A stretch of DNA of 64,000 nucleotides from Minisyncoccota bacterium (lineage in GTDB: Bacteria > Patescibacteriota > Minisyncoccia > Phycocordibacterales > UBA6065), in NCBI GenBank assembly GCA_035714745.1, contig DASTLR010000003.1, positions 161 to 64,160 of the forward strand, written 5' to 3'. A program made the position numbers and the translations under genes. Below are positions 10,218 through 48,499 of this stretch, in pieces. Each line of letters begins with the position of its first letter. Within the stretch, counting starts at the first letter, position 1. A model generated the notes under the pieces. That model ran no database searches. It worked only from the letters and a program-made list of their open reading frames with translations, and was not told where the DNA came from.

Positions 10218-10236
10218 GCGCCTATTGTATCAGAGG

Positions 10237-11721: not shown

Positions 11722-12090
11722 TTACGGCTCGAAGGCCGGTAGCGTCAGCGCGTGCATGCGCGCCGTGGCTCTGCGAAGGTCCGAAGCCCAATAAGGCGCC
11801 TTCGTCGGCACCAGGCGCATGCGATTATCATAACGAAGGTTTCCTACTTGCTGGACGAGGCCTCGGTCATGCAGGTTCGCGAGGGCAGTTTTGATCCTGT
11901 GGCGCGGTTCTCTGAGCATCCTGGCAAGAGAGGCTGTCGAATGAGGTCCAGAGGCGGTGGCGAGGATAACCTTTCTCTCTGTTTTGTTCAAGCTGAGCAT
12001 GTCGAACAATGTCTCGATATTGTGCCGAGAGGCGCCCCGCAATGTGCCGCTTAGCAAGGACGACTCCTCTATCATTTCAATGTCGCTCAT
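11722..12090 (-). CDS. Small winged-helix transcription regulator (MarR/ArsR-like), hypothetical
   Basis: 122 aa. The HTH segment is STASLARMLREPRHRIKTALANLHDRGLVQQV. It lies between cysS and dnaB on the same strand. The upstream region is AT-rich with several short hairpins. Confidence 0.5.
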   Translation of the reverse strand: MSDIEMIEESSLLSGTLRGASRHNIETLFDMLSLNKTERKVILATASGPHSTASLARMLREPRHRIKTALANLHDRGLVQQVGNLRYDNRMRLVPTKAPYWASDLRRATARMHALTLPAFEP

Positions 12091-12268
12091 CAGCCAAGTG
12101 TACGCCCAGTCGCATCTTGAGTTCTATAGTCCTCTCGTGTCGAAAAAGAGCCTTTCGTCAAAATGGAGTTTCAAATGTCCATTTTAACGAAAGTCGTTTT
12201 TGCGAGACCGTCGAGGGCCCAATAGAATAAAAAGCTTACAAAAAATTCCGCAGATTCCTCGCCGCCTG

Positions 12269-28730: not shown

Positions 28731-28749
28731 GATTTGCCTTGCTTTATTT

Positions 28750-30069
28750 TTACGGCGAGATTTTACGCCGGAAAATGCGTGGGAACGGAATGGCGTCGCG
28801 CACATGCGGGATGTTGAGCATCCAGCGGATCATGCGTTCGACCCCCATGCCGAAAGCCGCGTGAGGAACGCAGCCGAGTTGGTGGACGTCACGGACGAAT
28901 TCGAAGCGCGGATCACCATGCTTGCCCTTATCCTTGAGCCGCTCGTCGAGTTCGCGGAGTTGATGGATTTTCTCGGCGGTGCCGAGGAGCTCGCCGTAGC
29001 CATTGCTCGCGATCAGGTCGGCGACGCGAGTGATTCGCGTGTCGGCCGGATCGATGCAATACGGGAACGGTTCGATAGTCCGGGGTATCCCAGTGATCCA
29101 GAACGGGCGACCAGGAAAGAGCTTGGAGAGCAAGGTTTCCTCTTCGGAGCCGAGGCTCTTGCCAAACTCATGTTGCATGCCGAGCGACGAAAGGTGCTTG
29201 ACCGCCTCTTCGTAGCTGATGCGGGGATATGGAACGGACATGCCGTCGGTGCAGAGCGTCGTGCCGAGCACCTGGAGCTCTTCCGAGAGCTCCTTCTGGC
29301 ATTTCTTGGTGAGGAAACAGATGATGTCCTCAACCATCTTGATGATGCAGTCGAGGTCGCACCAAGCCACCTCGGCCTTGATATGCCAGTATTCCATGAG
29401 GTGCCGTTTGCTGCGGCCCTCTTCCCCGCGGAAGCTCGGTCCCATATTGTAGACGCGCTCGAAGGCGTGGACCGCCGCTTCGAGGTAGTATCCGACGCAT
29501 TGCGTCAAGAATACATCCTCGTCATGGACGGTCAGCTTCATGGCCGTGCCGTCTTCGTAGAGCGGCACCGGCGTGAGTATCGGCGCGTCGATCGATGTGA
29601 ACCGGTTGTCTCGGAACCACTGCCGCATGTGATGCATCAGGCTGTCCCGATATTTCAAGATGGCCATTACCTTCGGGTTGCGGAGGTAGATATGGCGGTT
29701 GGCGAGCAGATGGGGCGTCATGCCTTCTGCGAAGATGTCGAAGTCGGAGCGCGGGTGCGGATCGAATCCGCGGGTGACCCCGCCGACGAGCGTGATGTCA
29801 TGCGCGGCGATTTCGAGGCGGCCTTTAGGCGTCCTCGAAACGACTCCTTTGACGACGATGCCTGATTCGACAGGGATATCCCTGGCGATCTCAGACGCTC
29901 CGTTCGAGCCATGCTCGGCGGAGACGACGACTTGGATCTTGCCCGTGCTGTCGGACACATCCAAGAACGTGATGCGGCCCTGGTCCCGCTTGGAGGAGAC
30001 CCAGCCTGACAAGTCGACCTGGTCTCCGGGTTGAGCCCGGAGGAGGTCGGCTACGAATACAGTCTTCAT
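28750..30069 (-). CDS. asnS: Asparaginyl-tRNA synthetase
   Basis: Class II motifs are MGPSFRGEEGRSKRHLMEYWHIKAEVAW and GCVPHAAFGMGVERMIRW. An N-terminal OB fold is present. Length is 439 aa. Confidence 0.8.
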   Translation of the reverse strand: MKTVFVADLLRAQPGDQVDLSGWVSSKRDQGRITFLDVSDSTGKIQVVVSAEHGSNGASEIARDIPVESGIVVKGVVSRTPKGRLEIAAHDITLVGGVTRGFDPHPRSDFDIFAEGMTPHLLANRHIYLRNPKVMAILKYRDSLMHHMRQWFRDNRFTSIDAPILTPVPLYEDGTAMKLTVHDEDVFLTQCVGYYLEAAVHAFERVYNMGPSFRGEEGRSKRHLMEYWHIKAEVAWCDLDCIIKMVEDIICFLTKKCQKELSEELQVLGTTLCTDGMSVPYPRISYEEAVKHLSSLGMQHEFGKSLGSEEETLLSKLFPGRPFWITGIPRTIEPFPYCIDPADTRITRVADLIASNGYGELLGTAEKIHQLRELDERLKDKGKHGDPRFEFVRDVHQLGCVPHAAFGMGVERMIRWMLNIPHVRDAIPFPRIFRRKISP

Positions 30070-30176: not shown

Positions 30177-31236
30177 TTAGAATTCGATGGATATGGTTCG
30201 GGCGGCCGGGTCGATTCGCACCTTTCTACCATACGGTATGGGTATCTGAGGATGTGTGTGCCCAAAATCAAGATTTTGTATTACTGGCGCCTTTGGATTG
30301 TATCGACGGAATTCTGCGAGCACATGTTCCCGCTGTTCGCGCCTGTAAGCAGCTTTAGCAGATGACCCTTTCGGGTCCGAAAAGTTCCACGCTTTTGGAC
30401 GGCCCACAAGGAGGCCTTTGGCAGCTCCTAAGATTTTCTTTCTTCCGAGCTTCCTTAGTATCGAAGCGACTTTTCGAGCAGATGGCACTTCTTCTGAGGT
30501 CTCAATGAGCAGAACCGCGTCCTTGAATTGATCAAGTGTCGGCATATCATTTCCCGAATCAAGCATTGCATTGATTGACTCAAGACAACCACCCCATGTT
30601 ATTCCCTCCACTATCAAGTCTCCGTCCCAGAACCAACCCTCATTTGGTTCGAAACATCGCTCCTGCTTAAGCGACTCTGGATTACTCCAGTCGACGTCGA
30701 CATCAGAGTATACGCTACTCGACATGAGGTCCACCCGGCCCTTCCTGAAGAGCGCCTGATTGATAAAACGATCTGTGAACTTATCAGGTCCTTCCTTGTG
30801 GGCGAATTGGGTGAAGAGTGCCGCGCCGTAATACGAAGGCACGCCAAGGAGCCAGAGGAAACTCATGAAATGGGTATTGTCGCTGAAGCCAAAAAAAGGC
30901 TTAGGGTTTAATGCGAACGGTTTCCGAGGCAAGAGCTTCATATATGTTGCCTGATCATCGCCACCAAGAGTGGTCACTACCCCTTTGATTTCCGAGTCAG
31001 AGAAGGCTGCAACTAGATCATTGATACGCTCGTCGACTGACGCGCCGAGTTTTCCTGTTGAGGGATATTCTACGGGGATAAGCCCGAGCTTACGGATTTG
31101 CTTCAAGCCAAGCTCATATACATGAGGCCACTTCCCCGGCGCGGCAAATGAAGGTGATAATATTGCCACCTTGTCACCTCTTTGGAGTTTTCGGAGTCTC
31201 TTGAATCTCACAAGATAATCATACGATATAAACATA
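30177..31236 (-). CDS. LD-carboxypeptidase, peptidase family S66 (LdcA/MccF family), in a low-GC island
   Basis: GDKVAILSPSF marks the family's N-terminal conserved segment, and the nucleophile Ser is in GFSDNTHF. The ATG at 31236 (MFISYDYLV...) sits just after a perfect terminator. The longer track ORF to 31490 reads through that terminator. Confidence 0.8.
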
Positions 31237-31258
31237 AAAAGGGCGCCGTAAGGCGCCC
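31236..31258 (-). terminator. Rho-independent terminator after the amidohydrolase gene
   Basis: On the minus strand the sequence is GGGCGCC-UUAC-GGCGCCC followed by UUUUUAUGUUU. Confidence 0.75.
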
Positions 31259-31263
31259 ATCTC

Positions 31264-32298
31264 TCAAAACCCAAAAAAAGCTTCGGCGTTCTTGCGAAAG
31301 ATCCGTTGCTTTGCCTGGTCTCGCATCTCGAGAGGCAAACTCTCGATAGCATTCCGAAGAGCGGTAAGGCAGAGCCAATGGCTATGCTCAGCCCCTTTAG
31401 CCAAGTGTCCATAGACCTTGTGCTCTTCCGGATCGGTCCAATGATACTGATACGATGTGACGATCCGCTGGCCCTTTTCCGGGTGAACATAGGGCCGCGA
31501 CCTGATTAGGTTAAGAGGTTCGTCGCTCCCATACATGATACGGCTGATACCGAAAGATTCGATAGCGAGCTTCATAACCTCTTCCGACGGGTTAAGCGAT
31601 GTATCCATGCTCACGTTCGGAGCTTCAGCGATTCGGCGATAGGCTTCGGCTAAGCCAGATACAACGAATTTCGTCGAACCGAGGTGGGCGATTGATATTC
31701 GTAAGGCTGGGAAATCCGTAACGACCTTCATCAGATCATCCTGGCTTTCCACAATCATCCGGGGTAGATGAAGGATAATCGGGATACCAAATCGCTCAGC
31801 CGCCACAAGGATCTCTGGAGGAAAACATTGATAGATCTCTTTGGCTGTTGGCTCGACATACGAATAATACATTTTGAGTGCCGAAACACGTGGGTGGAGC
31901 AACATCCGAATCGTATACTCGGGATCCTCTGGCAGGCCAAATAAGGCGACCCGATCATTTGGCGGGCTATCAGAGAGCAGATACTGGTTCACTTTGCGAT
32001 GGTCTATGCCCCGGAAAGTTTTAGCGAATCGGAGCGACCTGATCGATTTACCAGGGTGAAAAACCTCTCTTACCTTTTCCGACTCCTCGATCGAAAAGCA
32101 AGGGAAAGTCGAGAGCATATGACGAAAGGTCTTTTCGCCCATATCTCGGATATGCTCAGGAAGTGTTGCATGGGCATGACAATCGACGATATCGCTTGGC
32201 AGCCAACGAGTGAATGACTCGATGGATGTTTTCTCTCGGTCAGAGAGCGCCATGGCATGCGCGAGATACGCATCTCTGTTTATAGTTGTTGCGAGCAT
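31264..32298 (-). CDS. Metal-dependent amidohydrolase (amidohydrolase-2/TIM-barrel hydrolase family)
   Basis: 344 aa. The N-terminal metal-binding motif is IVDCHAH, and later segments are ISIAHLG and MYGSDEP. GC is ~45%. Confidence 0.6.
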   Translation of the reverse strand: MLATTINRDAYLAHAMALSDREKTSIESFTRWLPSDIVDCHAHATLPEHIRDMGEKTFRHMLSTFPCFSIEESEKVREVFHPGKSIRSLRFAKTFRGIDHRKVNQYLLSDSPPNDRVALFGLPEDPEYTIRMLLHPRVSALKMYYSYVEPTAKEIYQCFPPEILVAAERFGIPIILHLPRMIVESQDDLMKVVTDFPALRISIAHLGSTKFVVSGLAEAYRRIAEAPNVSMDTSLNPSEEVMKLAIESFGISRIMYGSDEPLNLIRSRPYVHPEKGQRIVTSYQYHWTDPEEHKVYGHLAKGAEHSHWLCLTALRNAIESLPLEMRDQAKQRIFRKNAEAFFGF

Positions 32299-32370
32299 GT
32301 GTTGTCTATTTGAGTGTTCATCTCTTAATAGAGCCTACATGCCGCAGATCGAGCAGTCAACCTGTGTACT

Positions 32371-33768
32371 CTACGGCGTCAAACGCTTAACACCTCGATA
32401 AAGATACGTCACATCTCTCACGTTCGAGATGCCGAACACTTTCATTAGCATGCGTGTTGGGCCCGGAGCGAATCCTCCATGTGGGGGACAGCCGTACCTG
32501 AAGAAATCGATATAGGTCTTGAATGAAGCGAGGTTGAGACCTTGCTCCTCGATCTGTTTCGATAATCTCTCAACACGATGCTCCCTTTGGGCTCCGCTCG
32601 TTATCTCGACCCCATTCCATAGGAGGTCAAAGCTTTTGGTGATTGTCGGGTCCTTTTCATCTCGCATGCTGTAGAATGCTCTTACTTCAGTCGGGAAATC
32701 ATGGATAAATACGAATTCATGGCCGAATTTCTCTTTGACATACTCGCATATAGCCCGCTCTTCTTCTGGGCTCATGTCGCCGCCACGCTCATTCGGAATG
32801 CCTCTAGCGGCAAGTATTTTTTTTACTTCACGGATCGATATTCTTGGGAACGGAAGAGCGGGCACAGGCAAATCTCTGCCGTATATCTTAAGAATTTCGT
32901 CGCCGTGCTTTTTTTTGACGGCGGCTATCATCGCCGTCACCATTTTTTCTTCTTGATCCATTAGGTCATGATGTGACGATATATATGACATTTCGATATC
33001 ATACATAGTGAACTCGGTGTCATGTCGGGAAGTGAAAGAAGGATTCGCTCTGAATACAGGACCTACTTCGAAGACACGCTCGAATCCCGCCGCCATCGCC
33101 ATTTGCTTGTACAGCTGAGGAGATTGGGCGAGCTTGGCCGTCTCGTCGAAATATTTCACTTCGAACAGCTCGGCGCCTGACTCTGACGCAGTTGATATGA
33201 GCTTTGGCGAATGAATCTCTATGAAATCGTTTTCGATACAGTACGTTCTAAAGGCCTGCTCCATTGTCGTCCAGACCTTGAATATAAGAGCATTCTCAGG
33301 TTTACGGAGATCGATCCACCTCCAGTCAAGACGTATCTGCTGATCAGTTTCTTCGTTTCCCTTCTTTACGACTACGGGTATAGGCAGCTCTGGATCTGCG
33401 ACAGAGAGTATTTCGAGCCGCGTTATCTCTATCTCTACCCCTCCAGGGGCTTGATCGGCTTTTTTTGCCTTACCTGCGAGTGCGATGACGGATTCGAGCG
33501 AAAGCGTCTTTAATTTTTCGAACTCGGGATTGTCTTTAGTGGCGAGCGCTTGAACCGTGCCTGTTATATCGCGAAGCACTACGAAGATAATCTTGCTCTG
33601 TACTCGCAGGGCATGCACGAATCCCCTAACGACTATTTCTTCTCCCACATGGGCTGCGACTTCCTTGGCGTGGATCATATAATGATATTTGTATCGGAGA
33701 AATAAAAGACCCTCCGAACTCATAGGCTTGTAATGAATTCGCAGGGGCGATTTAGATCGCGGTGCCAC
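32371..33768 (-). CDS. Second aspartyl-tRNA synthetase paralog (archaeal type) encoded in low-GC DNA
   Basis: About 70% aa identity to the 27426..28730 protein across the core (for example HSPKLISTASESGAELFEVKYFDETAKLAQSPQLYKQMAMAAGFERVFEVGPVFRANPSFTSRHDTEFT). All three class II motifs are intact. GC is ~46% versus ~60% for the native copy. The start is uncertain (M1 at 33768, M16, or M31 at 33678). Confidence 0.85.
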   Translation of the reverse strand: MAPRSKSPLRIHYKPMSSEGLLFLRYKYHYMIHAKEVAAHVGEEIVVRGFVHALRVQSKIIFVVLRDITGTVQALATKDNPEFEKLKTLSLESVIALAGKAKKADQAPGGVEIEITRLEILSVADPELPIPVVVKKGNEETDQQIRLDWRWIDLRKPENALIFKVWTTMEQAFRTYCIENDFIEIHSPKLISTASESGAELFEVKYFDETAKLAQSPQLYKQMAMAAGFERVFEVGPVFRANPSFTSRHDTEFTMYDIEMSYISSHHDLMDQEEKMVTAMIAAVKKKHGDEILKIYGRDLPVPALPFPRISIREVKKILAARGIPNERGGDMSPEEERAICEYVKEKFGHEFVFIHDFPTEVRAFYSMRDEKDPTITKSFDLLWNGVEITSGAQREHRVERLSKQIEEQGLNLASFKTYIDFFRYGCPPHGGFAPGPTRMLMKVFGISNVRDVTYLYRGVKRLTP

Positions 33769-37185: not shown

Positions 37186-37842
37186 TTATTTGATCTCGAT
37201 CCAATTCCCTTCGCTGACGACCTCGACCTTTTCGTCTGCAACTTTGATGGCTGAAGCATCGTCGAGAGCGTACGTCTTTCGTCCGGTTCCCTCTACGGCT
37301 TTACGGATATTCTTCTCTCGCAACAGCGGGAACCATTTGGAATCGAGGTGAGGCAGCACATAAAAATCTACGAAACCAAGGCCCGGCATGTCTTCCTTTC
37401 GATCAAAGTCTTCTTCATAGACGATTTGAGATATCTTGAGCGACAGGTCGGGATTAGTGACCATGGTGCCCGCGCTGATGCCAGCATAGAGACGCGTCTC
37501 GAGCAATCGCGGCAATTCCGCGGCAAGGCCTGATTTATTCAACCATTCCATAAGGTGATAAGTATTGCCGCCGCCGACAAAGATCACGTCGGCCGCTTCC
37601 AATCGCGGCAGCCACTGCTTTTTCTCGAGCGCTGATATGTCTACGATATCGACAGACTTAAGGCCGAGCCTCTGTATCTGCGCCAGATTGTCGAGAAGCC
37701 ACCCTTTGTCGCCTGGCTCGACGTTCGCTGCCGTGGGTATGAAAGCAAGCGAAATCCGGCTCGCTTTCTTTCCTGCGAGCTCGAAAAAAGCCCCTTCTAT
37801 AGCCTTATTCGTTATTCCTGCCGATGTAAGAAGTAATTTCAT
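37186..37842 (-). CDS. Peptidase E (S51 family dipeptidase/cyanophycinase-like)
   Basis: The protein begins MKLLLTSAG and contains VGGGNT and the catalytic Ser region AGISAGT. Length is 218 aa. Confidence 0.75.
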   Translation of the reverse strand: MKLLLTSAGITNKAIEGAFFELAGKKASRISLAFIPTAANVEPGDKGWLLDNLAQIQRLGLKSVDIVDISALEKKQWLPRLEAADVIFVGGGNTYHLMEWLNKSGLAAELPRLLETRLYAGISAGTMVTNPDLSLKISQIVYEEDFDRKEDMPGLGFVDFYVLPHLDSKWFPLLREKNIRKAVEGTGRKTYALDDASAIKVADEKVEVVSEGNWIEIK

Positions 37843-39121
37843 TTAAGCGCATGGTCTCCTGCGTCCCCCTCTCCATGTCTTTGACCACGACCTTGCCTTC
37901 TTTGGCCTCGTTGGGGCCGTAGATGAGGGCGTACGGGATGCCCTTGTCGCTCGCGTAGCCGAGCTGCTTCTTCATGTCGCCCGGCTCGAAATAGAGGATG
38001 GCGTTCACCCCGGCCGCGCGCAGGTCGCTCGCGAGCTCAAGGTAGTCGTCGGTCAGGCTCTCGTCCAGGTTGACGATGAGCGCGCGAGCGGTAGAACGAG
38101 CAGGAGCGATCAGGCCGAGCTCCTCGAGAGCGGCATAAAGCCTGTCTAGGCCAATGCTGGCCCCTACTGCCGGCACCTGCCTGCCCGAGAACATGCCGAC
38201 GAGGCCGTCATAGCGGCCGCCCGAGAGCACGCTGCCGAAGGCGGGCAGAGCGGTCAGGTTCGTCTCGAAGATCAGTCCCGTGTAATAGTCTAGGCCGCGA
38301 GCGATGGAGAAGTCGATGACGAAGCGCGCTTCCGCCAGCTCGTACGCCATCTCGACGATAGCGACCAGTCTCTTCAGGGGCACTCTGACGCTCGGGAAGG
38401 CCTGGGCTACCTCTTCGAGCTCGGCCACGTTCTCTATCCCGTCGATGGACGTCTCGGCAAAAGCGGCGACTTGCTCGACCAGGGCCGGCTTGATGCCTGC
38501 CTTGGCAAGCTCCTCGGCCACACCCTCCTTGCCTATCTTGTCGATCTTGTCTACGGCGCGAATGGCCGCGACCTTCTCTTCAGCGCTCAAACCGAGCGAG
38601 TCATAGAACGCGCTGATGATCTCCCGCGAATTGACGCGCACCACGAAATCGGACGCCTTGACGCCCAGCTTCTGCAGGGTGCCGGCGGCCAGGGCCAGGA
38701 TCTCGGCATCGGCCAGGGGCGACGTCGAGCCGACGATGTCCGCGTCGCACTGGTAGAACTCGCGGAAGCGGCCCTTTTGGGTGTTCTCGGCGCGCCAGAC
38801 CGGCGAGACCTGGTAGCGCTTGAAGGGCTTCTTGAGGTCGCCGTTCATGGCCACTACGCGAGCCAGAGGGATGGTCAGGTCGTAGCGCAGGGCCACGTCG
38901 CGGTCGCCGTTGTCGCGGAAGCGGTACATGAGCTTGTCGCCCTCGTCGCCGTACTTGCCGGTGAGCACTTCCGCGTACTCCAAAGCCGGCGTCTCGAGCG
39001 GCTCGAAGCCGAACGTCCTGTACGACGACTTGATGGCCTCGATCATGCGCTCGCGAGCGATCTGCCGCTCCGGCAGGAAATCGCGGAAGCCCTTGAGGAT
39101 CTTTGGTTCTATCTGTGGCAT
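37805..39121 (-). CDS. hisS: Histidyl-tRNA synthetase (copy 1, ~60% GC)
   Basis: Contains KGFRDFLP, RYDLTIPLARVVA, FREFYQCDADIVG and GGRYDGLV, plus a C-terminal anticodon-binding domain. Length is 438 aa. Confidence 0.9.
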   Translation of the reverse strand: MPQIEPKILKGFRDFLPERQIARERMIEAIKSSYRTFGFEPLETPALEYAEVLTGKYGDEGDKLMYRFRDNGDRDVALRYDLTIPLARVVAMNGDLKKPFKRYQVSPVWRAENTQKGRFREFYQCDADIVGSTSPLADAEILALAAGTLQKLGVKASDFVVRVNSREIISAFYDSLGLSAEEKVAAIRAVDKIDKIGKEGVAEELAKAGIKPALVEQVAAFAETSIDGIENVAELEEVAQAFPSVRVPLKRLVAIVEMAYELAEARFVIDFSIARGLDYYTGLIFETNLTALPAFGSVLSGGRYDGLVGMFSGRQVPAVGASIGLDRLYAALEELGLIAPARSTARALIVNLDESLTDDYLELASDLRAAGVNAILYFEPGDMKKQLGYASDKGIPYALIYGPNEAKEGKVVVKDMERGTQETMRLNEITSYIGRNNE

Positions 39122-39232
39122 AGATATAGCTTAGCAGAAGCGTGGTCTAATCACCAGAATCTTGGACTAGCGGCAAACGAAATCCCCCTTTCGGGGAAAA
39201 TCTCGGAGGCAGAAGCCATTATTTGCTGACAG

Positions 39233-39733
39233 CTAAAGTATAGTTTTATTCTCCAGGATGTCAGATATCCTCTTCATGATATGGTCTTGTACTTCTCCCC
39301 AATCAAAGTATTCTTTGTAATCTTTTGGATTGATTAGTTTTATCTCGGTGATGTCTCCGTCAGGGTCGGCGATGAATGGTCCATATGGCTCAACGATGCA
39401 AAGAGTGCGGCTTTGATTAACCGTACGCCCCGGCATAAGAATATTTTGATAGCCAAGCGGTATCTGGCGAAGCACTCGCATGTTGGATTCTTCTTTAACT
39501 TCCCTCTCCGTCGCTTCGGCAAGCGATTCGCCTGCTTCTATCCTTCCTCCGATCGGTGTCCACCTCTCACGGCTCTTGTCATAGACAAGTACCATCTTGC
39601 CATTGCAGATGCAGACGGCGCCAATGCTCTCGAAGGGCAGATGTTTGACTTCATCGTATGATTCGATATCTCGGTATGTCACGTCGACTAGTCCTTCCGT
39701 ACGGCTTTGGATCTTAATCTTTATTTCCATCAC
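39233..39733 (-). CDS. NUDIX hydrolase
   Basis: The Nudix box is GGRIEAGESLAEATEREVKEESN. Length is 166 aa. GC is low. Confidence 0.8.
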   Translation of the reverse strand: MMEIKIKIQSRTEGLVDVTYRDIESYDEVKHLPFESIGAVCICNGKMVLVYDKSRERWTPIGGRIEAGESLAEATEREVKEESNMRVLRQIPLGYQNILMPGRTVNQSRTLCIVEPYGPFIADPDGDITEIKLINPKDYKEYFDWGEVQDHIMKRISDILENKTIL

Positions 39734-40002
39734 GAAAGTATATCACTTGCTTTTTATAAAGATATTCAATAGAGTTTTGAGGCTATGACCGCATATCACA
39801 GCCACACGAATACGAATCTCATCAAGTCCTGCATGCGCGGAGCCGCCCAGGCGACCTTCGTCATGGATTCGAGCATTCTATTGCGTATAGCCGATATGCG
39901 TTAAACCTCTCCTCACCGCAGAATTGACCCATCCCGGCTGGACGCAAGCCGGGATTTCTTTTGCCCGCGCCCTATCCAGCATTAATCGTTAGTTCCTTAG
40001 AT

Positions 40003-40605
40003 ATGACCATGAAAGCACAAGACAAAAGCGCTCGGCACGTCGTATTCCTCCGCGGCAAGAAGACCTTCTTGCGACCGCTTGAAGAAGGCGACCTGCCGCT
40101 CTTGACCAGGTGGATCAATGACCCAGAAGTGACCAGGTATCTGACGGCCTATCTGCCTCAGAGCCTGGAGAGCGAGAAGGAATGGTTCGCCAAGCTGAAA
40201 AGCAACAAGAACGAGGTCACCCTGGGGATCTGCACGCTCGACGGCACCCTGATCGGCGTGATGGGCACCCATCACATCAATTGGAAGGATGGCACGACTA
40301 CGACCGGAGCCTTCATCGGAGAGAAGAAGCTCTGGGGCAAGGGCTACGGGACCGATGCCAAGATGCAGCTCCTTAACTATTGCTTCAACGAGCTCGGCCT
40401 CCGCAAGATCATGTCTCGGGTCATCGCCTTTAACGGCCGCAGCCTAGCATACAGCAAGCACTGCGGCTACGTAGTCGAGGGCACATCCCGTCTCGAGGTC
40501 TTCAAGGGAGGCCAGTATTGGGACGTCATCGATCTTGGCCTCTTCAAGGAGGAATGGCTCCCCTATTGGCAGAAGTATCAGAGAGGCCTGAAAAAGGCAC
40601 GCTAG
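40003..40605 (+). CDS. GNAT N-acetyltransferase, RimJ/RimL (Acetyltransf_3) family
   Basis: The N-terminal segment LRPLEEGDLPLLTRWINDPEVTRYL is typical of RimL/RimJ. The acetyl-CoA region is LWGKGYGT. The start is taken at the ATG at 40003. Confidence 0.75.
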   Translation: MTMKAQDKSARHVVFLRGKKTFLRPLEEGDLPLLTRWINDPEVTRYLTAYLPQSLESEKEWFAKLKSNKNEVTLGICTLDGTLIGVMGTHHINWKDGTTTTGAFIGEKKLWGKGYGTDAKMQLLNYCFNELGLRKIMSRVIAFNGRSLAYSKHCGYVVEGTSRLEVFKGGQYWDVIDLGLFKEEWLPYWQKYQRGLKKAR

Positions 40606-40611
40606 CGACAA

Positions 40612-40636
40612 GCCCGGCACAGCGCCGGGCTTTTTT
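40612..40636 (+). terminator. Rho-independent terminator after the GNAT gene
   Basis: GCCCGGC-acagc-GCCGGGC followed by TTTTTT. Confidence 0.8.
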
Positions 40637-41111
40637 ATGCCGTAGCTGACATCCCGAGCATTCTCTCGAATTCCTTTCGATACTTCTCGAGAGTGTGCGC
40701 GAACCCCGTATGGAGCGGCTGGGGCAAAGCGTCGAGGGCGAACCAGCTGATCTCTGCCATTTTTTCAGGCTCGCAGATGCTGACGCGGGCAGGATCGACC
40801 CTTACAAAGAACGGCGCGGCGATCCAGTGCGTCATAACGCCGTTCTGCTCCCGAAAGATGTCATGCGCGGGCAGAGAGCCGATGATCTCTCCCTCGGCGC
40901 CGTATTCCTCTCTGACCTCCTGGAGCGCGTTCTCCTCGAGCGAGAGGTCGAATTCGAGCTTTCCCGAGCCTGGGTCCCAGCGCCCGTGCTCGTCGCGACA
41001 GTTCTCCGTCCTCTTGTGCATGAGGAGTCGTCCCTTCCCGTCTGTGCAGTAGAAGGGCGTCGTGACGCCCACGAAATCGATGCCGATCTTCATAGTGTTT
41101 CTCTTATGCAC
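40635..41111 (-). CDS. NUDIX hydrolase
   Basis: The Nudix box is GSGKLEFDLSLEENALQEVREEYG. Length is 158 aa. Confidence 0.75.
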   Translation of the reverse strand: MHKRNTMKIGIDFVGVTTPFYCTDGKGRLLMHKRTENCRDEHGRWDPGSGKLEFDLSLEENALQEVREEYGAEGEIIGSLPAHDIFREQNGVMTHWIAAPFFVRVDPARVSICEPEKMAEISWFALDALPQPLHTGFAHTLEKYRKEFERMLGMSATA

Positions 41112-41179
41112 TGTATTGTACCAAAATAAAAAACCACTTATCCCGAAGGAAGAGTGGTGAGAAAGCGCGGGGGCGCGAT

Positions 41180-41251
41180 GGGACTCGAACCCACAACCGT
41201 AGGTTCCACAAACCTGCGCTCTACCATTGAGCTACGCGCCCACACTGCAAA
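41180..41251 (-). tRNA. tRNA-His (anticodon GTG). Canonical cloverleaf with C73 discriminator, but the genomic -1 position is T, not G.
   Basis: The sequence is GGGCGCGTAGCTCAATGGTAGAGCGCAGGTTTGTGGAACCTACGGTTGTGGGTTCGAGTCCCATCGCGCCCC. The acceptor stem is 7/7. The D stem is GCTC/GAGC. The anticodon loop is TTGTGGA. The T loop is TTCGAGT. CCA is not encoded. The 5' flank is ...GTGT. Confidence 0.85.
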
Positions 41252-41274
41252 AGAGCTGACAAACGATATATTAC

Positions 41275-42624
41275 TTATTGCGCCGAGGCTGTCAATATCC
41301 GGTTCGTCACAAAGACGATATTCTCGGCTGCCACCTCCGACTGCTTCTTCAGCCTCGTATCTTTTACCTGGGCTAACCCTTTGGCCATTTCGTTGCCGCC
41401 GGCGATTACGATCACGGGGATTCCACGACGAAGCGCATAAGCGAGCTGGGCTTTCAGGTTAGTTTCCTTTCCTAGATAGAGCTCGGCTCGGATCATACCT
41501 TTACGAAGGATACCCGTGATCGACTGGCAGTAGCTCTCGGCATCGGGATCGAAGTTGAGGACGATGGCTTGAACTGTCGTTCCCTCCTTCTTTACCAGGC
41601 CGAGCGATTCCATGGCCGCAAACAGGCGGTCGACTCCGACCGAAGCACCCGTAGCAGGAATGCTCTGGCTTCCGAAGCGCGACACGAGGTCGTCGTAACG
41701 TCCTCCCGAAAAAACGCTGCCGATCGAGGGAAGGTCGAGCAGCGTCGTCTCGAAGACAGGCCCCGTGTAGTAACCGAGGCCGCGCGCAACCGAGAGATCG
41801 ACCTTCCATGCCGACCTCGGCACTCCGAGGGAATCGACCCCTTTCACGATGGCGCGGAGCTCGTCGATGCCTTCGAGCGCGACAACCGATTCTTTCATCA
41901 GGTCAGCCAATCCGTCGAGCGTCGCGTCGATGGTGTCGCCCTGGGTGCCCAAGAATGTGCTCAGTTTGGCGATCTGAGCCTTGGTAAGCTCTTTTTGAGC
42001 GAGCTCGTCCGATACCCCCTGCCAGCCTATCTTGTCGATCTTGTCGAGGATGCGCAGGATGTCAGGATTGAGGGTGCCGTCATACTCAACGAATGCAGGC
42101 AGGCCGTTCAGGACCTTCCTGTTGTTGACGCGGATCTGGAAGCGTTCCAGCCCCAAAGCCTTCATCGTCTCATACATGAGCGAGACGATCTCTGCGTCGG
42201 CGCTAGTCCGGGCCGATCCGACGATATCCGCGTCGAATTGCACGAACTCGCGGAACCTGCCCGCTTGCGCCTTTTCGCCGCGCCAGACCTTTCCCGTGTG
42301 ATAGCGCTTGAACGGCAAGTCGAGCTTGTCCGAATAGAGCGATACCACGCGAGCGAGCGGCACGGTCAGATCGAAGCGGAGAGCCAGGCCCTCGTTGTTC
42401 CCCTTCAGCCCCGTCTTAAAGATCTGCATGCCGAAGTTGGAATCGCCACCTGTCAAGATAGCCTCCCTTTCGATACCGGGGGTATCGATCGGGGCAAATC
42501 CGAACCGCTCGAAAACGGCCCTGATCGTGTCGAACATCTTCTGCCGGGGGATCATATCCTCGGGCAGGTAGTCTTTAAAGCCTGAAGCGAGTTCAGGGCT
42601 GATCCGTATGTCAGAGTTCATCAT
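41275..42624 (-). CDS. Histidyl-tRNA synthetase paralog (copy 2)
   Basis: Contains SGFKDYLP, RFDLTVPLARVV, FREFVQFDADIVG and GGRYDDLV, plus a C-terminal anticodon-binding-like domain (VIVIAGGNE). About 50-55% identity to copy 1. Length is 449 aa. Confidence 0.85.
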   Translation of the reverse strand: MMNSDIRISPELASGFKDYLPEDMIPRQKMFDTIRAVFERFGFAPIDTPGIEREAILTGGDSNFGMQIFKTGLKGNNEGLALRFDLTVPLARVVSLYSDKLDLPFKRYHTGKVWRGEKAQAGRFREFVQFDADIVGSARTSADAEIVSLMYETMKALGLERFQIRVNNRKVLNGLPAFVEYDGTLNPDILRILDKIDKIGWQGVSDELAQKELTKAQIAKLSTFLGTQGDTIDATLDGLADLMKESVVALEGIDELRAIVKGVDSLGVPRSAWKVDLSVARGLGYYTGPVFETTLLDLPSIGSVFSGGRYDDLVSRFGSQSIPATGASVGVDRLFAAMESLGLVKKEGTTVQAIVLNFDPDAESYCQSITGILRKGMIRAELYLGKETNLKAQLAYALRRGIPVIVIAGGNEMAKGLAQVKDTRLKKQSEVAAENIVFVTNRILTASAQ

Positions 42625-42728: not shown

Positions 42729-43547
42729 CTAAGACATCGCCGCGAGGACTTCGATGACACCAGACGTCACTTCGCCCCTTGCCGTATAGGCGCACTTAGA
42801 TTTGAATTCGGGTGAAGCGTTGGCAACGGCGCAGTGGACGACCCCCTCTTTTGGATGGTAATCGGTCATGCTGTCTCCGACGACTATCACTTGGCGGCCG
42901 GGATATTTCGCCTCAACCCATGGAATCGCCTGCGCTTTCATGGTGCCAAAGTGATGGATAATGCAGATGCCGTAGTCATCGTTCATATCGACATCGAAGG
43001 CACACTCCTGCTTACCCGAGCGAGCAAGGAATTCACCGCATAGCTTCCTCATCAATCCGGCGCTCCGAGCCCATCGCCCTTGCGATTTTTCGAGCGCGTA
43101 GAAGCTCAGACTGGCCCTGCGAAGACTATTAACGAGAACGGCGCGCGAAGCGCTCGACGGAGCCTCCATACCCGGCAACTGTCGGGACAGGTTGTTCACA
43201 TCATGACAAGACACAAGCGCACCGATAGCCAAGGAATAATCGATGATACGCTTCCACGCCCCATCAAATACGTCTGATCGGTCTCCCAGTATTGCCGCCG
43301 GCTCCGCGCCATAACTCTCCCCAGCGATCGCGCAAGCCCCTTTTTCAGCGATTATCGGTCCCGTATGGGACCATTGGTCCATATAAGCCTTTATCGTCTC
43401 TATCGCCGAATCAGAGCTGACGCCGACGATATGTCCTGCAGCGACCGTCCTCCCAATCGCCACGCGAAGCTCCTCAACCGCAGTCGTCGGGCGATAATTC
43501 TTACCGATGACTGTATTGTCCAGGTCCAAAAGAAATATCTTTTTCAT
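42729..43547 (-). CDS. HAD-superfamily phosphatase (Cof/HAD-IIB-like)
   Basis: Motif I is LLDLDNTV and motif IV is VGDSMTD. Length is 272 aa. Confidence 0.7.
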   Translation of the reverse strand: MKKIFLLDLDNTVIGKNYRPTTAVEELRVAIGRTVAAGHIVGVSSDSAIETIKAYMDQWSHTGPIIAEKGACAIAGESYGAEPAAILGDRSDVFDGAWKRIIDYSLAIGALVSCHDVNNLSRQLPGMEAPSSASRAVLVNSLRRASLSFYALEKSQGRWARSAGLMRKLCGEFLARSGKQECAFDVDMNDDYGICIIHHFGTMKAQAIPWVEAKYPGRQVIVVGDSMTDYHPKEGVVHCAVANASPEFKSKCAYTARGEVTSGVIEVLAAMS

Positions 43548-43653: not shown

Positions 43654-44526
43654 TTGATCCTTAACCTAACGAATATGCAAAAAGAAATTGTCGGACTCAC
43701 GACTTTTCACGGTTCTGAACCCGGGAAAACAGTCGCTATCATGGCCGGTGTTCACGGAGATGAGCCCTGCGGCCTCCGTGCGCTCGAAGCCCTTGCCAAG
43801 GATTTGATCGTCAAGCGGGGAACGGTCCATTTCCTCATCGGTAATCCAGAGGCCATCAAGCTAAATAGGCGCCAGTTCGAGTGGAATCTCAATCGAGCGT
43901 TTAGGCCGGACATCGTAGAAAATTCTCTTACGTCGTATCAACGGAAAAGCTATGAGCGCAAGCGAGCACTCGAGATAATGGAGGTGCTAAAAGAATGCGA
44001 TGCGCTACTGGATATCCATTCGTCGATGTCGATAGAAAGCACGCCGTTCATCATCTGTGAGAAGTCCGCTTTCCCGATAGCCCGTCGCCTTCCCTTTTCT
44101 ATCCTTTCCTTTGGATGGGACGAAATCGAGCCCGGAGGCACTGATTATTTCATGAGCGCTCATGGCAAGATCGGCATATGCATAGAATGCGGATGTCACC
44201 TAGATTCAAGCGCGCCCGCGATCGCCGAAAAGTCTGCAAGGACGTTCTTGACGCTCATGGGTTCGATTGACGGAGATATCCCGCCCGTGACAAAGAAGAG
44301 GCTCATTGATGCGTATAGGGTCTATCATCCCTCAGGGGACTTTGTCCCAGCGAAGGAATTTGCTGATTTTGCCCCGCTCAGCACAGGAGAACTCATTGGA
44401 ATGGACGGGCGAATCCCTATTTACGCAGGCAAGGACGAGGTGATTATTTTTTGCAGAAAGTGCAATAAGCCGGATGATGAGGCGTTTATCCTTGGCCGTG
44501 AGATATTCGGATATTTGCGAGACTGA
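43654..44526 (+). CDS. Succinylglutamate desuccinylase/aspartoacylase (AstE/AspA) family zinc hydrolase
   Basis: The zinc-binding segment is GVHGDEPCG, followed by a later His/Glu segment. Length is 290 aa. GC is low. Confidence 0.6.
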   Translation: MILNLTNMQKEIVGLTTFHGSEPGKTVAIMAGVHGDEPCGLRALEALAKDLIVKRGTVHFLIGNPEAIKLNRRQFEWNLNRAFRPDIVENSLTSYQRKSYERKRALEIMEVLKECDALLDIHSSMSIESTPFIICEKSAFPIARRLPFSILSFGWDEIEPGGTDYFMSAHGKIGICIECGCHLDSSAPAIAEKSARTFLTLMGSIDGDIPPVTKKRLIDAYRVYHPSGDFVPAKEFADFAPLSTGELIGMDGRIPIYAGKDEVIIFCRKCNKPDDEAFILGREIFGYLRD

Positions 44527-44576: not shown

Positions 44577-45464
44577 TTATTCGAGCAGCGAAAAAAAAGC
44601 CTTGTTAAATTTATCCGCGCTTATGTCAAACGCTACCCTGGCCGCATACTTCCCCCCCGAGAATACTTCGCCTTCCCTTAATCCCGAGACGTGTATACCT
44701 ACCATATCTTCTTTAAAAGACAGGTATTCACCCGTAACCGCCGCAGCTAGAGTCAGCGGGTCATATAACTCGAATGATCGTTTTTTGGGGTAGCCAAAGA
44801 AGCGATACCAATTCTCGACCGCCTCACTGACGAAGCGAATCACGGCGCCTTGGCCTAAATTCTTGAGAGAGCTGTCCGAGACGAGGCAACGGTTCGTGAC
44901 ATCTAGAGGTACTATATAAACGTCTTTTGCGTTTTGCAGGATCGTTTCCACCGCCTTCGGGTCTTGGAAAAAATTATATTCTGCATATTCTGTCTGATTT
45001 CCCGGCACGTTGAAAGCGCCGCCCATGAGATATATCTTCTCTATGTTCTCTGCAACCTTCGGATTCTTAGCTATCGCCCTGGCTATGTTGGTAGGAGCCG
45101 CCAGGCATATGATATTAACTTTTCTTTCGCGGGCCATTCTTGCTATGAAATCGCTCGCCTCTTCGTTAGCCTTTGACCCAGTCGGCGCAGGTAGCGAGAC
45201 GTCGCATATACCGTTTGTTCCGTGGTAATCATATGCATGTACGAACTCGCTACCGGTGATCGATTTAGACGCCCCTGCATATACGGGTACATTCCAGCCG
45301 ATGAGTCCCGCGATCCTTAGCGTGTTCTCCGTCGCCTCCTCGAGCTTTACATTGCCACCACAAACGGTTATGCCAAGAACGTCTTCCTTACAGAGCTTAG
45401 CGGCCAATATGATGGCTAGGGCGTCATCTATTCCGGTATCGACATCTATGATTATATTTTTCAT
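44577..45464 (-). CDS. Nucleoside hydrolase (inosine-uridine preferring IUNH family)
   Basis: The signature IIDVDTGIDDALAI (DxDxxxDD) is present. The internal ATG start gives MKNIIIDVD. GC is low. Confidence 0.85.
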   Translation of the reverse strand: MKNIIIDVDTGIDDALAIILAAKLCKEDVLGITVCGGNVKLEEATENTLRIAGLIGWNVPVYAGASKSITGSEFVHAYDYHGTNGICDVSLPAPTGSKANEEASDFIARMARERKVNIICLAAPTNIARAIAKNPKVAENIEKIYLMGGAFNVPGNQTEYAEYNFFQDPKAVETILQNAKDVYIVPLDVTNRCLVSDSSLKNLGQGAVIRFVSEAVENWYRFFGYPKKRSFELYDPLTLAAAVTGEYLSFKEDMVGIHVSGLREGEVFSGGKYAARVAFDISADKFNKAFFSLLE

Positions 45465-45789
45465 TTTGATGATTAAGCGGACATACCCGATAAACCGAAA
45501 CACCTCCACAATCGAGAGGTGTTTTAGCTAAATTTTAAATTATCGCTCCAAACACCCTACGAAATGATTCCGTGATGGTGGGAGTTATAGACGATGCTAC
45601 CTGTGTGCGCAACCATATTAGTAATGCAAATAATACACTTTGCTTACCAAAAAAGTAGTTGACAAATGTATAAATTGTATCCGGATTATTGACAAGCGGT
45701 ACGGGTATTCTATCCTTAAGGCAGAAATGGCTTCGCCTAACTGCGAGGCCGTGCGTTAGTTAACATGTTACAGACCATGCAGGTGATAC

Positions 45790-46791
45790 ATGAACTCCAT
45801 CCGACATTGCAACGGTCAGACATACATCATCACCCACGACCTGGGTGAACGGATTCAGTCCCTCCAATCAATCGGCCTCAGAACCCCGGCGGCGAGCGAC
45901 GATTTCTTTCTGGGATTCAACCACGGACTCAAAAGTCTCATTTCCGAAGCGCTTCCGGGTGTTGAGGTCATCGACTACGACATGAAGGGTCTGGCCAGCG
46001 AAGTCTGGGCAGAATCGACGAGAATGCTTGAGTCCATCACGGATTCCGTATTCGTCAGCACGTGCGCGGAGGTCGCTTCCTTGCGACGCGGTCAGACCAT
46101 CGAGGTCAACCGTATCGTCGACGAGACCGGCAAAATTATCGGGCTTGGGCCACGCCCCGGCAATCCCCGGCTCGGCGAGCAGATCGCTCGGATCGTGGCA
46201 TATGCCGACGGTCGTCCGATTATCCTGACGGAAGACGGAGCCTTCTCCGGCTATACCGTCGAGTATATCCTCAAGCTCCTGCGGGCACGAGGGGCTAGGG
46301 TGGCTGCCGTGGTGCTCGGCCTATGCTTTCCGGGAGCGAAGGAACTCTTTTCGAAGTCGTTCGAAGGCGAGCTCGTAATAGTCGAGAAGGTCGACCATCC
46401 GTTCGAGTGGATGCCCGACCATGACTTCGTCCCGTTCGTCCCGAACTGCGGCCGCGTCTATGGTGGGCGTTTCGGCAAGGATGTTCTGCCATATTACTCG
46501 CATGACGGGCACGCATTCTCGTTTCCGTATGTGCGGCCTTACGGTGACCCCGTGGACTGGGCCAGCATCCCGCAGGAACACGCGGCAGAACTCTCGAGGT
46601 TCTGCCTGCAGACGTCGCACATGCTCTATGAAATCCTCGACAAGCTCAATGGCCGGTCGATCATGATGCATGACCTGTTGGCCAGCAAGCCACGAGTCTG
46701 CGTGCCCATGAGTATGGGCGGGAACGACCTTCCGCAGACCGACTTCTGTGTATCAGAATATCTCAGCGAGGTCTGCCAGGAGCTCGCTTAA
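45790..46791 (+). CDS. Hypothetical protein with phosphoribosyltransferase-like (PRTase type I) nucleotide-binding segment
   Basis: 333 aa. The segment IILTEDGAFSGYTVEYILKLLRARGARVAAVVLG resembles the PRPP-binding loop. GC is higher (~58%). Confidence 0.45.
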   Translation: MNSIRHCNGQTYIITHDLGERIQSLQSIGLRTPAASDDFFLGFNHGLKSLISEALPGVEVIDYDMKGLASEVWAESTRMLESITDSVFVSTCAEVASLRRGQTIEVNRIVDETGKIIGLGPRPGNPRLGEQIARIVAYADGRPIILTEDGAFSGYTVEYILKLLRARGARVAAVVLGLCFPGAKELFSKSFEGELVIVEKVDHPFEWMPDHDFVPFVPNCGRVYGGRFGKDVLPYYSHDGHAFSFPYVRPYGDPVDWASIPQEHAAELSRFCLQTSHMLYEILDKLNGRSIMMHDLLASKPRVCVPMSMGGNDLPQTDFCVSEYLSEVCQELA

Positions 46792-46867: not shown

Positions 46868-48499
46868 CTACACCACCGGCACCTCCACATAGAACTGGCT
46901 GCCCTGGCCCTCGCCGGCGGATTCGGCCCAGACGCGGCCGCCGTGGGCGGTGACGATCTCGCGGGCGATGAAGAGGCCCAGGCCCGTGCCGTGGATGTTG
47001 GCCTCGCTCGCCTTGGGCGCGCGGGAGAACTTCTGGAAGAGCTTCGGCATGACGTCGGCGCGGATGCCCACGCCGGTGTCTTTGACGGCGAAGAGCGCCT
47101 TGCCGTCCTTCCTGCGGAGGCTGATGGCGATCGAGCCCTCGGGCGTATATTTCACGGAGTTGTCGATGGTGTTCATGAGGACCTGCTTGAACTTGTCAGG
47201 GTCGGCCTTGATCTTGTACGGCTGGCTCTCGTCCACGTCGACCGACCACTTCAGGCCTTTCGCCTCGATGTTCGGCTGCTGCTCGCGGGCCACTTCCTTG
47301 ACCAGGTCCCTGAAGTCCATGTCGCGCAGGTCGTACTTCATCGTCCCCAGCTCGATGCGCGAGACGTTCAGGTAGTCCTCGACGATGTTGATCATGGTCC
47401 TGATCGAGGTGTAGATGGTCTGGACGACGCCCTTGACGCCGTCAGAGACCGGACCGAAGTCCCCTTCCAGGATGAGCGACGCGTTGCCTTTCATGGCCGT
47501 CAGAGGGCTGCGCAGCTGATGCGTGGCAAAGGAGATGAATTCCGTCTTCTGCTTGTCCAGCTCGAGCAGGCGGGTGTTCTTGGTGTCGAGCTCGGCGGCG
47601 AGCTTTTCGATCTTCTCTCTCGCTTTTTCCTCGCTGTTTATATTCTTCAACAGGACAAAAGTCGCGCCAACAGCAAGAACCAAAGTTACACCAGTCAAGA
47701 CTTGGTTAGTCGTGTTCTCGAGAAAAAAGAATTGGGAACCGACAAGTATAAGGAGAGTGTAGGCGAGCAGCTGCGTACCAAAAGATCGTATCTTGAATAT
47801 TCGCAGGTTAGTGATCGAATATATAATCATGCCAAGGAACACAGGTAGGATGAAAAGGCTATAGAGATTTATCTCATAGACACCGGTAACACTGGCTACA
47901 TACTCTGTCACTGAAAATACCGTAAAGAATAACAACAATGCGAGTGCGACTATCGCTATTTGCCATTTCTTCTTCGCGTCAGATTTTCGTATCCCTCTGA
48001 TACCAAAGATCACAACATATACACACACGAACCATTCGATGCCAAGCTTATAGTTCGTCAGCAGCTCACCATTGAACGCCTCGCACTGCGGCTGGTTGAA
48101 TCCAGTTATCGAATGTCCGGTAATCGTCAATAGCCAAGCCGGGACCGAAAGACCTAGAAATGCGACTTTGACCCAATTAGATATCGGCTTTCCATCATTC
48201 AAAAGCACAGAGAAAAAATATGCGCCAGCCAGGAAGAAGATAACGTTGATGTAATCGAGCGGAGCCCAAACTGCGGTGACAAGATGATAGTCGCTCACGG
48301 TCCAATCAATCACGCTTCCGATCAACCATAAGCAGTATGTTCCGGCGAATAGTGAGAATACTTTAGACAAGAGAGAATACTTCGACTTGATGAGCGTGAA
48401 AAAGATCAGGAGCGCGCTTATTGAGACAGGGATCAAGTGCGAGTAATACGCGATAGTATGATAACTCTCTGTCGTCGCTATGCATGTATTTAAATCCAT
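46868..48499 (-). CDS. Sensor histidine kinase with multi-TM N-terminal sensor domain (orphan; no response regulator in the window)
   Basis: HisKA is FATHQLRSPLTAM. The HATPase_c domain contains DPDKFKQVLMNTIDNSVKYT and GTGLGLFIAREIV. The N-terminal ~290 aa form at least 7 TM helices. GC is ~40% in the sensor half and ~60% in the kinase half. Confidence 0.9.
   Translation of the reverse strand: MDLNTCIATTESYHTIAYYSHLIPVSISALLIFFTLIKSKYSLLSKVFSLFAGTYCLWLIGSVIDWTVSDYHLVTAVWAPLDYINVIFFLAGAYFFSVLLNDGKPISNWVKVAFLGLSVPAWLLTITGHSITGFNQPQCEAFNGELLTNYKLGIEWFVCVYVVIFGIRGIRKSDAKKKWQIAIVALALLLFFTVFSVTEYVASVTGVYEINLYSLFILPVFLGMIIYSITNLRIFKIRSFGTQLLAYTLLILVGSQFFFLENTTNQVLTGVTLVLAVGATFVLLKNINSEEKAREKIEKLAAELDTKNTRLLELDKQKTEFISFATHQLRSPLTAMKGNASLILEGDFGPVSDGVKGVVQTIYTSIRTMINIVEDYLNVSRIELGTMKYDLRDMDFRDLVKEVAREQQPNIEAKGLKWSVDVDESQPYKIKADPDKFKQVLMNTIDNSVKYTPEGSIAISLRRKDGKALFAVKDTGVGIRADVMPKLFQKFSRAPKASEANIHGTGLGLFIAREIVTAHGGRVWAESAGEGQGSQFYVEVPVV

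Follow-up and report, generated by a model that had tools for sequence, protein, structure and literature searches.

A tRNAHis gene without an encoded G-1 beside a second histidyl-tRNA synthetase in a genome of the candidate phyla radiation

The guanosine at position -1 of tRNAHis (G-1) is taught to be an identity element of nearly universal occurrence. We describe here a stretch of 64,000 nucleotides (the window; contig DASTLR010000003.1, positions 161 to 64,160) from a metagenome-assembled genome of the candidate phyla radiation (CPR, or Patescibacteria). In it, a tRNAHis gene without an encoded G-1 follows the gene of one histidyl-tRNA synthetase (HisRS-B), and the gene of another (HisRS-A; NCBI label of its source, Candidatus Paceibacterota) lies close by. 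We lean toward reading the locus as a native HisRS-A to which a HisRS-B/tRNAHis cassette with a changed identity rule has been added.

The exceptions to G-1 listed in reviews are an alphaproteobacterial clade and two protists, Acanthamoeba castellanii and Trypanosoma brucei (PMC6471195, PMC3245924), and each is accounted for by an atypical HisRS, independent of G-1 and dependent on the anticodon (PMC6471195, PMC3064791, PMC4338351). In the pair of Caulobacter crescentus (Wang 2007; Yuan 2011), the tRNAHis has a 9-nt D-loop with U20a, and G37 belongs to the transplant set (PMC3064791); the enzyme has Gly at the position of Q118 in Escherichia coli and Asp–Asp replacing the Gly–Gly pocket (PMC4338351, PMC4357726). 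The noncanonical HisRS enzymes of A. castellanii and T. brucei (Rao and Jackman 2013, 2015) are indifferent to G-1. For tRNAHis, a paper of 2017 that deals with TyrRS and TrpRS identity of archaeal type in CPR names the alphaproteobacterial case alone. Our literature search returned no report of tRNAHis G-1 loss, of Thg1 or of HisRS duplication in CPR, and the lineage-wide loss of G-1 and the presence of two HisRS types side by side, as reported below, appear to be undescribed.

The tRNAHis gene and the two synthetases

The elements on which the argument rests are the following.

37805–39121, minus strand: HisRS-A, full-length class II histidyl-tRNA synthetase, 438 amino acids (TIGR00442; Pfam tRNA-synt_His and HGTP_anticodon)
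41127–41158, minus strand: terminator-like hairpin (41158–41133) with a U-run (41132–41127); RNA fold of -12.8 kcal/mol, z-score -2.4
41170–41241, minus strand: tRNAHis(GUG) gene (ARAGORN; Rfam RF00005, 67 bits; sequence reading)
41242, minus strand: position -1 of the tRNAHis, a T, unable to pair with C73 (sequence reading)
41268–41295, minus strand: sigma-70-like promoter of the tRNAHis (TTGACA, 16-nt spacer, TAATAT; 10 of 12 consensus matches)
41275–42624, minus strand: HisRS-B, full-length class II HisRS of another CPR HisRS lineage, 449 amino acids (TIGR00442 and Pfam domains)

An earlier note, made from the sequence alone, had described a tRNAHis with anticodon GTG, C73 and a T at position -1, and the three lines of evidence given for the gene bear this out. 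The acceptor stem, GGGCGCG/CGCGCCC, places G1 (41241) opposite C72, with C73 as the discriminator (41170). Position -2 is a G and the CCA end is not encoded. The D-loop, AAUGGUA, has 7 nt, and the anticodon loop, UUGUGGA, contains G37. Compared with a canonical bacterial tRNAHis, the encoded G at -1 is lacking and C73 is present, but without a pairing partner at -1. A shifted register of the acceptor stem, in which 41241 would be G-1, was considered and rejected; it would displace U8, A14 and G18G19. Since these residues lock the register, there is neither a hidden G-1 nor an alternative stem of 8 base pairs.

The tRNAHis begins 33 nt past the stop codon of HisRS-B. The -35 box of its promoter lies within the 3′ end of hisS-B and the -10 box just beyond the stop codon, and a TTGACA-like box is found at a similar distance upstream of the tRNAHis in L016, L214, L216, L010 and L014 (loci presented in the next section). 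Because the promoter predicts a 5′ leader of ∼20 nt, the 5′ end of the tRNA must be set by RNase P. For the same reason, and with T at -1, a 5′ G supplied by a transcription start at -1 was rejected. A scan with a consensus terminator made no call at the hairpin 41127–41158 because of an internal mismatch in the stem. As predicted from these signals, the tRNAHis gene is transcribed independently and its transcript requires RNase P. ARAGORN found no second tRNAHis in the window. The same program reports a "tRNA-???" of 95 nt with a two-base anticodon (31191–31285, minus strand), in or overlapping the open reading frames (ORFs) 30177–31490 and 31264–32298, which has no Rfam match and is probably a false positive.

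The two full-length HisRS genes announced in the earlier note are indeed present. Their scores with the NCBIfam hisS equivalog TIGR00442 are 417.7 bits for HisRS-A and 367.3 bits for HisRS-B (cutoff 286.75), and with the HisZ model TIGR00443 201.3 and 187.1 bits, both below the cutoff of 271.65. Each protein contains the tRNA-synt_His core (PF13393) and the HGTP anticodon-binding domain (PF03129). In the alignment, GRFREF (motif 2), RGLxYYTG (HisA box), GGRYD (HisB box) and GASxGxDR (motif 3) are intact in both. Their identity, put at 50–55% in the note, was measured at 41% over 420 amino acids. The note also had the two genes bracketing the tRNA; the tRNA does lie between them, but asymmetrically, next to the end of HisRS-B and ∼2 kb from HisRS-A, with genes for NUDIX, GNAT and NUDIX proteins in the interval. 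For both enzymes the closest solved structures are 3NET, 6NHI and human HARS (the eukaryote/archaeal-like subtype), not the E. coli or Thermus enzymes. In a neighbor-joining tree, the members of the A family group in a Parcubacteria clade of their own and HisRS-B is nested in a separate CPR clade; its homologs in Patescibacteria are 56–71% identical. On these sequence comparisons, HisRS-A and HisRS-B are not recent duplicates.

With the Caulobacter pair, the window has in common a bacterial setting, the lack of an encoded G-1, G37 and an apparent co-evolution of enzyme and tRNA; by analogy, the expected mechanism, charging without G-1 and through the anticodon, would be alike as well. The details differ. 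The Caulobacter tRNA has G1:U72 and A73, whereas the window tRNA, with its shorter D-loop, has G1:C72 and C73 (C or A in the relatives). At the equivalent of E. coli Q118, HisRS-B has Gln and the Caulobacter enzyme Gly (G118). The equivalents of Thermus thermophilus G72/G73 are Asn–Asn in HisRS-B and Asp–Asp in Caulobacter; the pocket region as a whole reads N-G-D in HisRS-A and G-N-N in HisRS-B, with the Gln kept in both. Unlike in Caulobacter, hisS and the tRNA gene are adjacent in the window and a second, native HisRS is present. The HisRS-B/tRNAHis pair would therefore be one that works like the Caulobacter system without being a member of it.

The protist systems also have a tRNAHis without G-1, with a Watson–Crick pair 1:72, and A. 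castellanii keeps a canonical and a noncanonical HisRS, like the two-enzyme window. They differ in being eukaryotic, with A73 and with the two enzymes in cytosol and mitochondrion, whereas the window would house both in one bacterial cytoplasm. Horizontally acquired second copies of aminoacyl-tRNA synthetases occur in bacteria, for example extra IleRS or TrpRS. The likeness lies in a divergent copy placed within a compositionally atypical block beside the native one; unlike those copies, HisRS-B is accompanied by a tRNA gene of its own, whose product would obey another identity rule.

Relatives of the tRNAHis and of the two synthetases

With a profile of the B family, 80 loci were retrieved from GTDB representative genomes; in 23 of them a tRNAHis gene lies beside hisS. 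The core B family comprises eight loci: the window, L016, L006, L007, L009, L214, L215 and L216. The states at positions -1 and 73, with those of more distant relatives, are as follows.

Core B family (-1/73): window, T/C; L016, G/A; L006, T/A; L007, T/C; L009, C/C; L214, A/C; L215, T/A; L216, C/C
L010 and L014 (Buchananbacteria): no G-1, C73
L036 (Uhrbacteria) and its sister L038 (labelled Gammaproteobacteria): no G-1, A73
L018, L022, L024, L034 and L005 (Sungbacteria-like, Yanofskybacteria and one Parcubacteria genome): canonical G-1:C73 kept
L012, L019, L030, L031, L055, L058, L065, L068, L076 and L077 (sister clade): no G-1, G1:U72, A73, 9-nt D-loop

In all eight core loci the tRNAHis lies ∼20–60 nt downstream of HisRS-B, and in none of them is a G-1:C73 pair encoded. 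Residue 73 is C in five and A in three (L016, L215 and L006), and the pair 1:72 is always G1:C72. When L010, L014, L036 and L038 are added to the core family, 12 CPR loci without G-1:C73 are obtained, with C at -1 in six, T in four, and A and G in one each. The control was a scan of metagenomes with a pattern of anticodon and D-arm, the latter the same as in the window tRNA, which serves as a baseline only, the matches listed being mostly ordinary tRNAHis of soil bacteria, with no locus closely related to the window among them. Among these matches, G occupies -1 in 68 of 74 complete tRNAHis genes, nearly all with C73, vs. one of the 12 CPR loci (Fisher p = 5.6e-9). As judged from these genes, the lack of G-1 is a trait of the lineage and not a peculiarity of the window.

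Four of the six exceptions in the control (L091, L099, L100 and L110) have C73 without G at -1 and belong to tightly packed tRNA arrays in metagenomes, which look like phage tRNA clusters. Scans of viral contigs gave only an unrelated tRNA array of a jumbo phage and distant HisRS genes.

In the sister clade, a full Caulobacter-type tRNAHis, G37 included, occurs beside a related HisRS in genomes labelled Bacteroidota, Acidobacteriota (Vicinamibacteria and Thermoanaerobaculia), Phycisphaeraceae, Planctomycetota and Rickettsiales. The Caulobacter type of tRNAHis may, from these genes, extend far beyond the alphaproteobacterial clade of the reviews. In L077 (Vicinamibacteria), a short HisRS-like ORF (11657–12829; 30% identity over 330 amino acids) directly follows hisS and the tRNAHis without G-1, and may be a HisZ. 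L007 also has two HisRS-family genes: an extra copy (7270–8577, plus strand) lies upstream of the B-like HisRS (9959–11371) and shares only ∼32% identity with A or B. The motif 2 of this extra copy reads GHFREF instead of GRFREF, and it may be a noncatalytic paralog.

HisRS-A has another set of relatives. Homologs ∼62–78% identical are found in L084, L085, L086, L207 and L208, and one of 52% in L209. The first five loci have in common the gene order SET, HisKA, (GNAT), HisRS-A, TrpRS, AspRS, ScpA, ScpB, of which L209 retains the part from HisRS-A to ScpB. In these six A-only relatives there is neither a second HisRS nor a tRNAHis within 10 kb of hisS, and the A-family loci examined (L084–L086 and L207–L213) are likewise without a tRNAHis within 10 kb. 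The A-only relatives must therefore encode their tRNAHis elsewhere in the genome, and it is plausible that the window genome also keeps a second, unlinked tRNAHis gene.

Compared with the A-only relatives, the window contains ∼6 kb of extra genes between HisKA (46868–48499) and GNAT: those for a phosphoribosyltransferase (PRTase)-like protein, an inosine–uridine nucleoside hydrolase, an AstE-like protein, a HAD protein, HisRS-B, the tRNAHis and a NUDIX protein. The A-only relatives have neither HisRS-B nor its neighbors at this position. The GC content of third codon positions (GC3) is 0.845 in HisRS-A, 0.85–0.92 in core genes (DnaB, GluRS, FtsW, TrpRS, DnaJ), 0.733 in HisRS-B and 0.54–0.72 in the neighbors of HisRS-B. 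With a gene order shared by six relatives and a GC3 like that of core genes, HisRS-A is, by sequence criteria, the native copy; by the same kind of evidence, HisRS-B belongs to another HisRS lineage of CPR, and the block around it differs in composition.

The same order of B, tRNA, NUDIX, GNAT, NUDIX, A and TrpRS is present in an independent assembly from Logan (L002, 17.7 kb). The nearest species with both enzymes, L016 (A 70% and B 71% identical), has B, the tRNAHis, an ORF of 202 amino acids on the opposite strand, and A. As the arrangement of A, B and tRNA recurs in an independent assembly and in another species, a chimeric assembly was rejected. For A and B on different contigs of one genome, proximity of NCBI accessions gave few accessions, none close together.

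Proposed charging of a tRNAHis without G-1

In the reading that we prefer, RNase P would cut at +1, so that the mature tRNAHis would start at G1; with U-1 facing C73, nothing should favor the unusual cleavage at -1 that keeps G-1 (from the mechanism in PMC3245924). On the model of the Caulobacter HisRS, HisRS-B would charge this tRNA without G-1, probably recognizing G37 and the anticodon GUG and accepting either base, C or A, at 73. Enzyme and tRNA would stay linked through co-evolution and be inherited or transferred together. HisRS-A would be a second active HisRS that either accepts the same tRNAHis or serves a tRNAHis gene elsewhere.

What points to an enzyme independent of G-1 is that the pair stays adjacent across a deep divergence, that position -1 has no preference for G, and that residue 73 flips between C and A in close relatives. 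The flip fits a relaxed recognition of the acceptor end better than a templated addition of G-1, because an archaeal-type Thg1 facing A73 adds U, and is inefficient at adding G (PMC3245924). The earlier note had offered relaxed recognition of G-1 by one of the two paralogs as one option; with the adjacent tRNAHis of the B lineage consistently without G-1:C73, this option is the best supported.

Several observations weigh against this reading. C73 and the Gln of motif 2 (the E. coli Q118 equivalent) are kept, which also fits recognition of a G-1:C73 pair after posttranscriptional addition. The alignment of the residues contacting G-1, proposed in the note, showed motif 2 intact in both enzymes and was uninformative on the state of the tRNA: the equivalents of T. 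thermophilus R115, R122 and 71'RGGR74' and of E. coli Q118 do not separate lineages with G-1 from those without. Because these residues do not track the tRNA, the protein sequence gives no independent support. A more distant member of the B clade, L005, encodes G-1:C73, so the enzymes of this clade are not intrinsically incompatible with G-1. Lastly, the HisRS-A of the window is nearer to the A-only relatives than to the HisRS-A of L016; for five of the seven relatives compared, this held in 190–200 of 200 bootstrap comparisons. The history would then be one of gain and loss, the B block having been either lost repeatedly or moved between lineages.

It is possible, though rather unlikely, that the cell contains two separate pairs, with HisRS-A serving a canonical G-1:C73 tRNAHis encoded elsewhere and HisRS-B serving only its linked tRNA without G-1. 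The window genome may keep the unlinked gene that the A-only relatives must have, the two enzymes belong to different clades at their low identity, the Caulobacter and E. coli pairs are mutually orthogonal (PMC3064791), and A. castellanii has both types of HisRS, though in different compartments (PMC4338351). Yet the 64-kb window holds no second tRNAHis, and the reciprocal occurrence of A-only and B-only genomes suggests that either enzyme alone is sufficient. Tentatively, such an arrangement could be seen as a set of natural orthogonal HisRS/tRNAHis pairs, or as an intermediate stage of an identity switch. More speculatively, the window and L016 could be living intermediates of such a switch, with two HisRS/tRNAHis systems of different identity rules in one cytoplasm; HisRS-A and an unlinked tRNAHis, possibly of the G-1 type, would then, if this doubtful picture holds, stand beside an acquired cassette of HisRS-B and a tRNAHis without G-1.

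Addition of G-1 after transcription is an improbable alternative. RNase P would again cut at +1, and a Thg1-like 3′–5′ polymerase encoded elsewhere would add G-1 templated by C73, followed by canonical recognition by one or both HisRS. The locus resembles the systems with Thg1 or Thg1-like proteins (TLPs) of eukaryotes, some archaea and few bacteria in having a tRNAHis gene without G-1 and a C73 as possible template. C73 is kept in the window and present in seven of the 12 loci without G-1; the Gln and Arg equivalents of E. coli Q118 and R123 in motif 2 are kept in HisRS-A and HisRS-B; and bacterial TLPs with such activity exist (PMC3061083, PMC3245924). Unlike in those systems, no TLP gene is seen in the accessible DNA: PF04446 (Thg1) is absent from the scanned ORFs of the window and from the Pfam tables of ∼20 related loci, each only a fraction of its genome. 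The template is not conserved across the lineage, with A73 in L016, L215, L006, L036 and L038, and the first three of these, opposite whose A73 archaeal-type enzymes add U, or add G only poorly, would be poor substrates for templated addition. The literature search also found nothing linking Thg1 with CPR.

A HisZ-like regulatory or scaffolding role for HisRS-B, also raised in the earlier note and here very improbable, would recall the HisZ–HisG partnership in that a second HisRS-family gene has a linked gene of a rare PRTase-like family, repeatedly found beside this HisRS type, and the hisZ model does give 187 bits, but HisZ identity was rejected for both enzymes on the model cutoffs, the intact catalytic motifs and the anticodon-binding domain; moreover, the cognate tRNA gene adjoins HisRS-B in every core locus, no second HisRS lies within 10 kb of B in L214–L216, the linked protein is built on a type-I PRTase core and has neither the HisG fold nor the HisG Pfam family, HisG is absent from the window ORFs and from the Pfam tables of ∼20 related loci, and the window contains no other gene of histidine biosynthesis, hence no his operon.

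The surroundings and the meaning of the locus

The genes that surround the two synthetases and the tRNA are listed below.

39233–39733, minus strand: NUDIX hydrolase between HisRS-A and GNAT (PF00293; 73% homolog upstream of HisRS-A in L086)
39961–40605, plus strand: GNAT acetyltransferase, conserved upstream neighbor of HisRS-A (Acetyltransf_3; homologs of 58–68% beside HisRS-A in L084, L086, L208 and L016)
40635–41111, minus strand: NUDIX hydrolase directly downstream of the tRNAHis terminator (PF00293)
42729–43547, minus strand: HAD (Hydrolase_3) phosphatase-like protein of the HisRS-B block (Pfam; same site directly upstream of HisRS-B in L214 and L216)
43654–44526, plus strand: AstE/AspA-family deacylase-like protein within the block (PF24827; in the window and L016 only, the latter a 33% homolog near HisRS-B)
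44577–45509, minus strand: inosine–uridine nucleoside hydrolase of the HisRS-B block (PF01156; same block in L214 and L216)
45790–46791, plus strand: divergent type-I PRTase-like protein, 333 amino acids (weak PF00156 match)

L214 and L216 carry the same block of genes for the PRTase-like protein, the nucleoside hydrolase, HAD, HisRS-B and the tRNAHis; in L215 it consists of those for the PRTase-like protein, HisRS-B and the tRNAHis. The PRTase-like family comprises 27 clusters among 5.8 billion proteins, with no significant Pfam match, and at least nine of these clusters apparently share contigs with matches to B-family HisRS. Its gene stands beside HisRS in L010 (8082–9056), L014 (7903–8874), L032 (11349–12359), L214 (6888–7892) and L216 (1830–2834). 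The AlphaFold2 model (pLDDT 90.7) has a type-I PRTase core with an extra C-terminal part; the best PDB matches of the fold, to APRT, OPRT, UPRT and HGPRT, are weak (E ∼ 1e-3). From these assignments, the PRTase-like protein, the nucleoside hydrolase and the HAD phosphatase look like a module for the salvage of nucleobases.

Other class II synthetases are present in extra copies. Two paralogs of nondiscriminating AspRS and an AsnRS-like gene occur at 27426–28805, 28750–30069 and 32371–33768 (all on the minus strand). Both AspRS paralogs, 54% identical to each other, score above the NF003483 cutoff, and the AsnRS-like gene is below its own cutoff. The second AspRS is part of a low-GC island (30177–33768) with GC3 of ∼0.52 vs. 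0.85 in core genes, and is 79% identical to a gene of L016 and only 27–35% to the single copy of other relatives. Judging by these genes, the window genome seems to acquire additional class II synthetases through transfer.

At ∼20 kb from the HisRS region there is a tyrosine recombinase of the Phage_integrase family (18058–19035, minus strand), with no link to the HisRS-B block seen. A protein of 1488 amino acids (154–4620, plus strand) combines LVIVD beta-propeller repeats with a Peptidase_S74 (endosialidase chaperone) domain; large proteins of this surface type are typical of CPR genomes.

For the biology of tRNAHis, the window is a testable case of a change in identity rule, where two synthetases coexist and the new one is physically linked to its own tRNA gene. 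HisRS-A may be redundant with HisRS-B on one tRNA, or may form with a tRNA of its own a second pair, possibly an orthogonal one. A large part of CPR (the B lineage of Paceibacterota, Buchananbacteria and Uhrbacteria) would do without an encoded G-1 while keeping G1:C72, with C or A at position 73. If this is true, the loss of G-1 is common across CPR and several other phyla rather than an alphaproteobacterial curiosity, and synthetases whose identity rules have changed spread by bringing a tRNA gene of their own along. Confirmation would show tRNAHis identity to be more flexible in evolution than is now known, and would offer synthetic biology a natural set of HisRS/tRNAHis pairs, possibly orthogonal.

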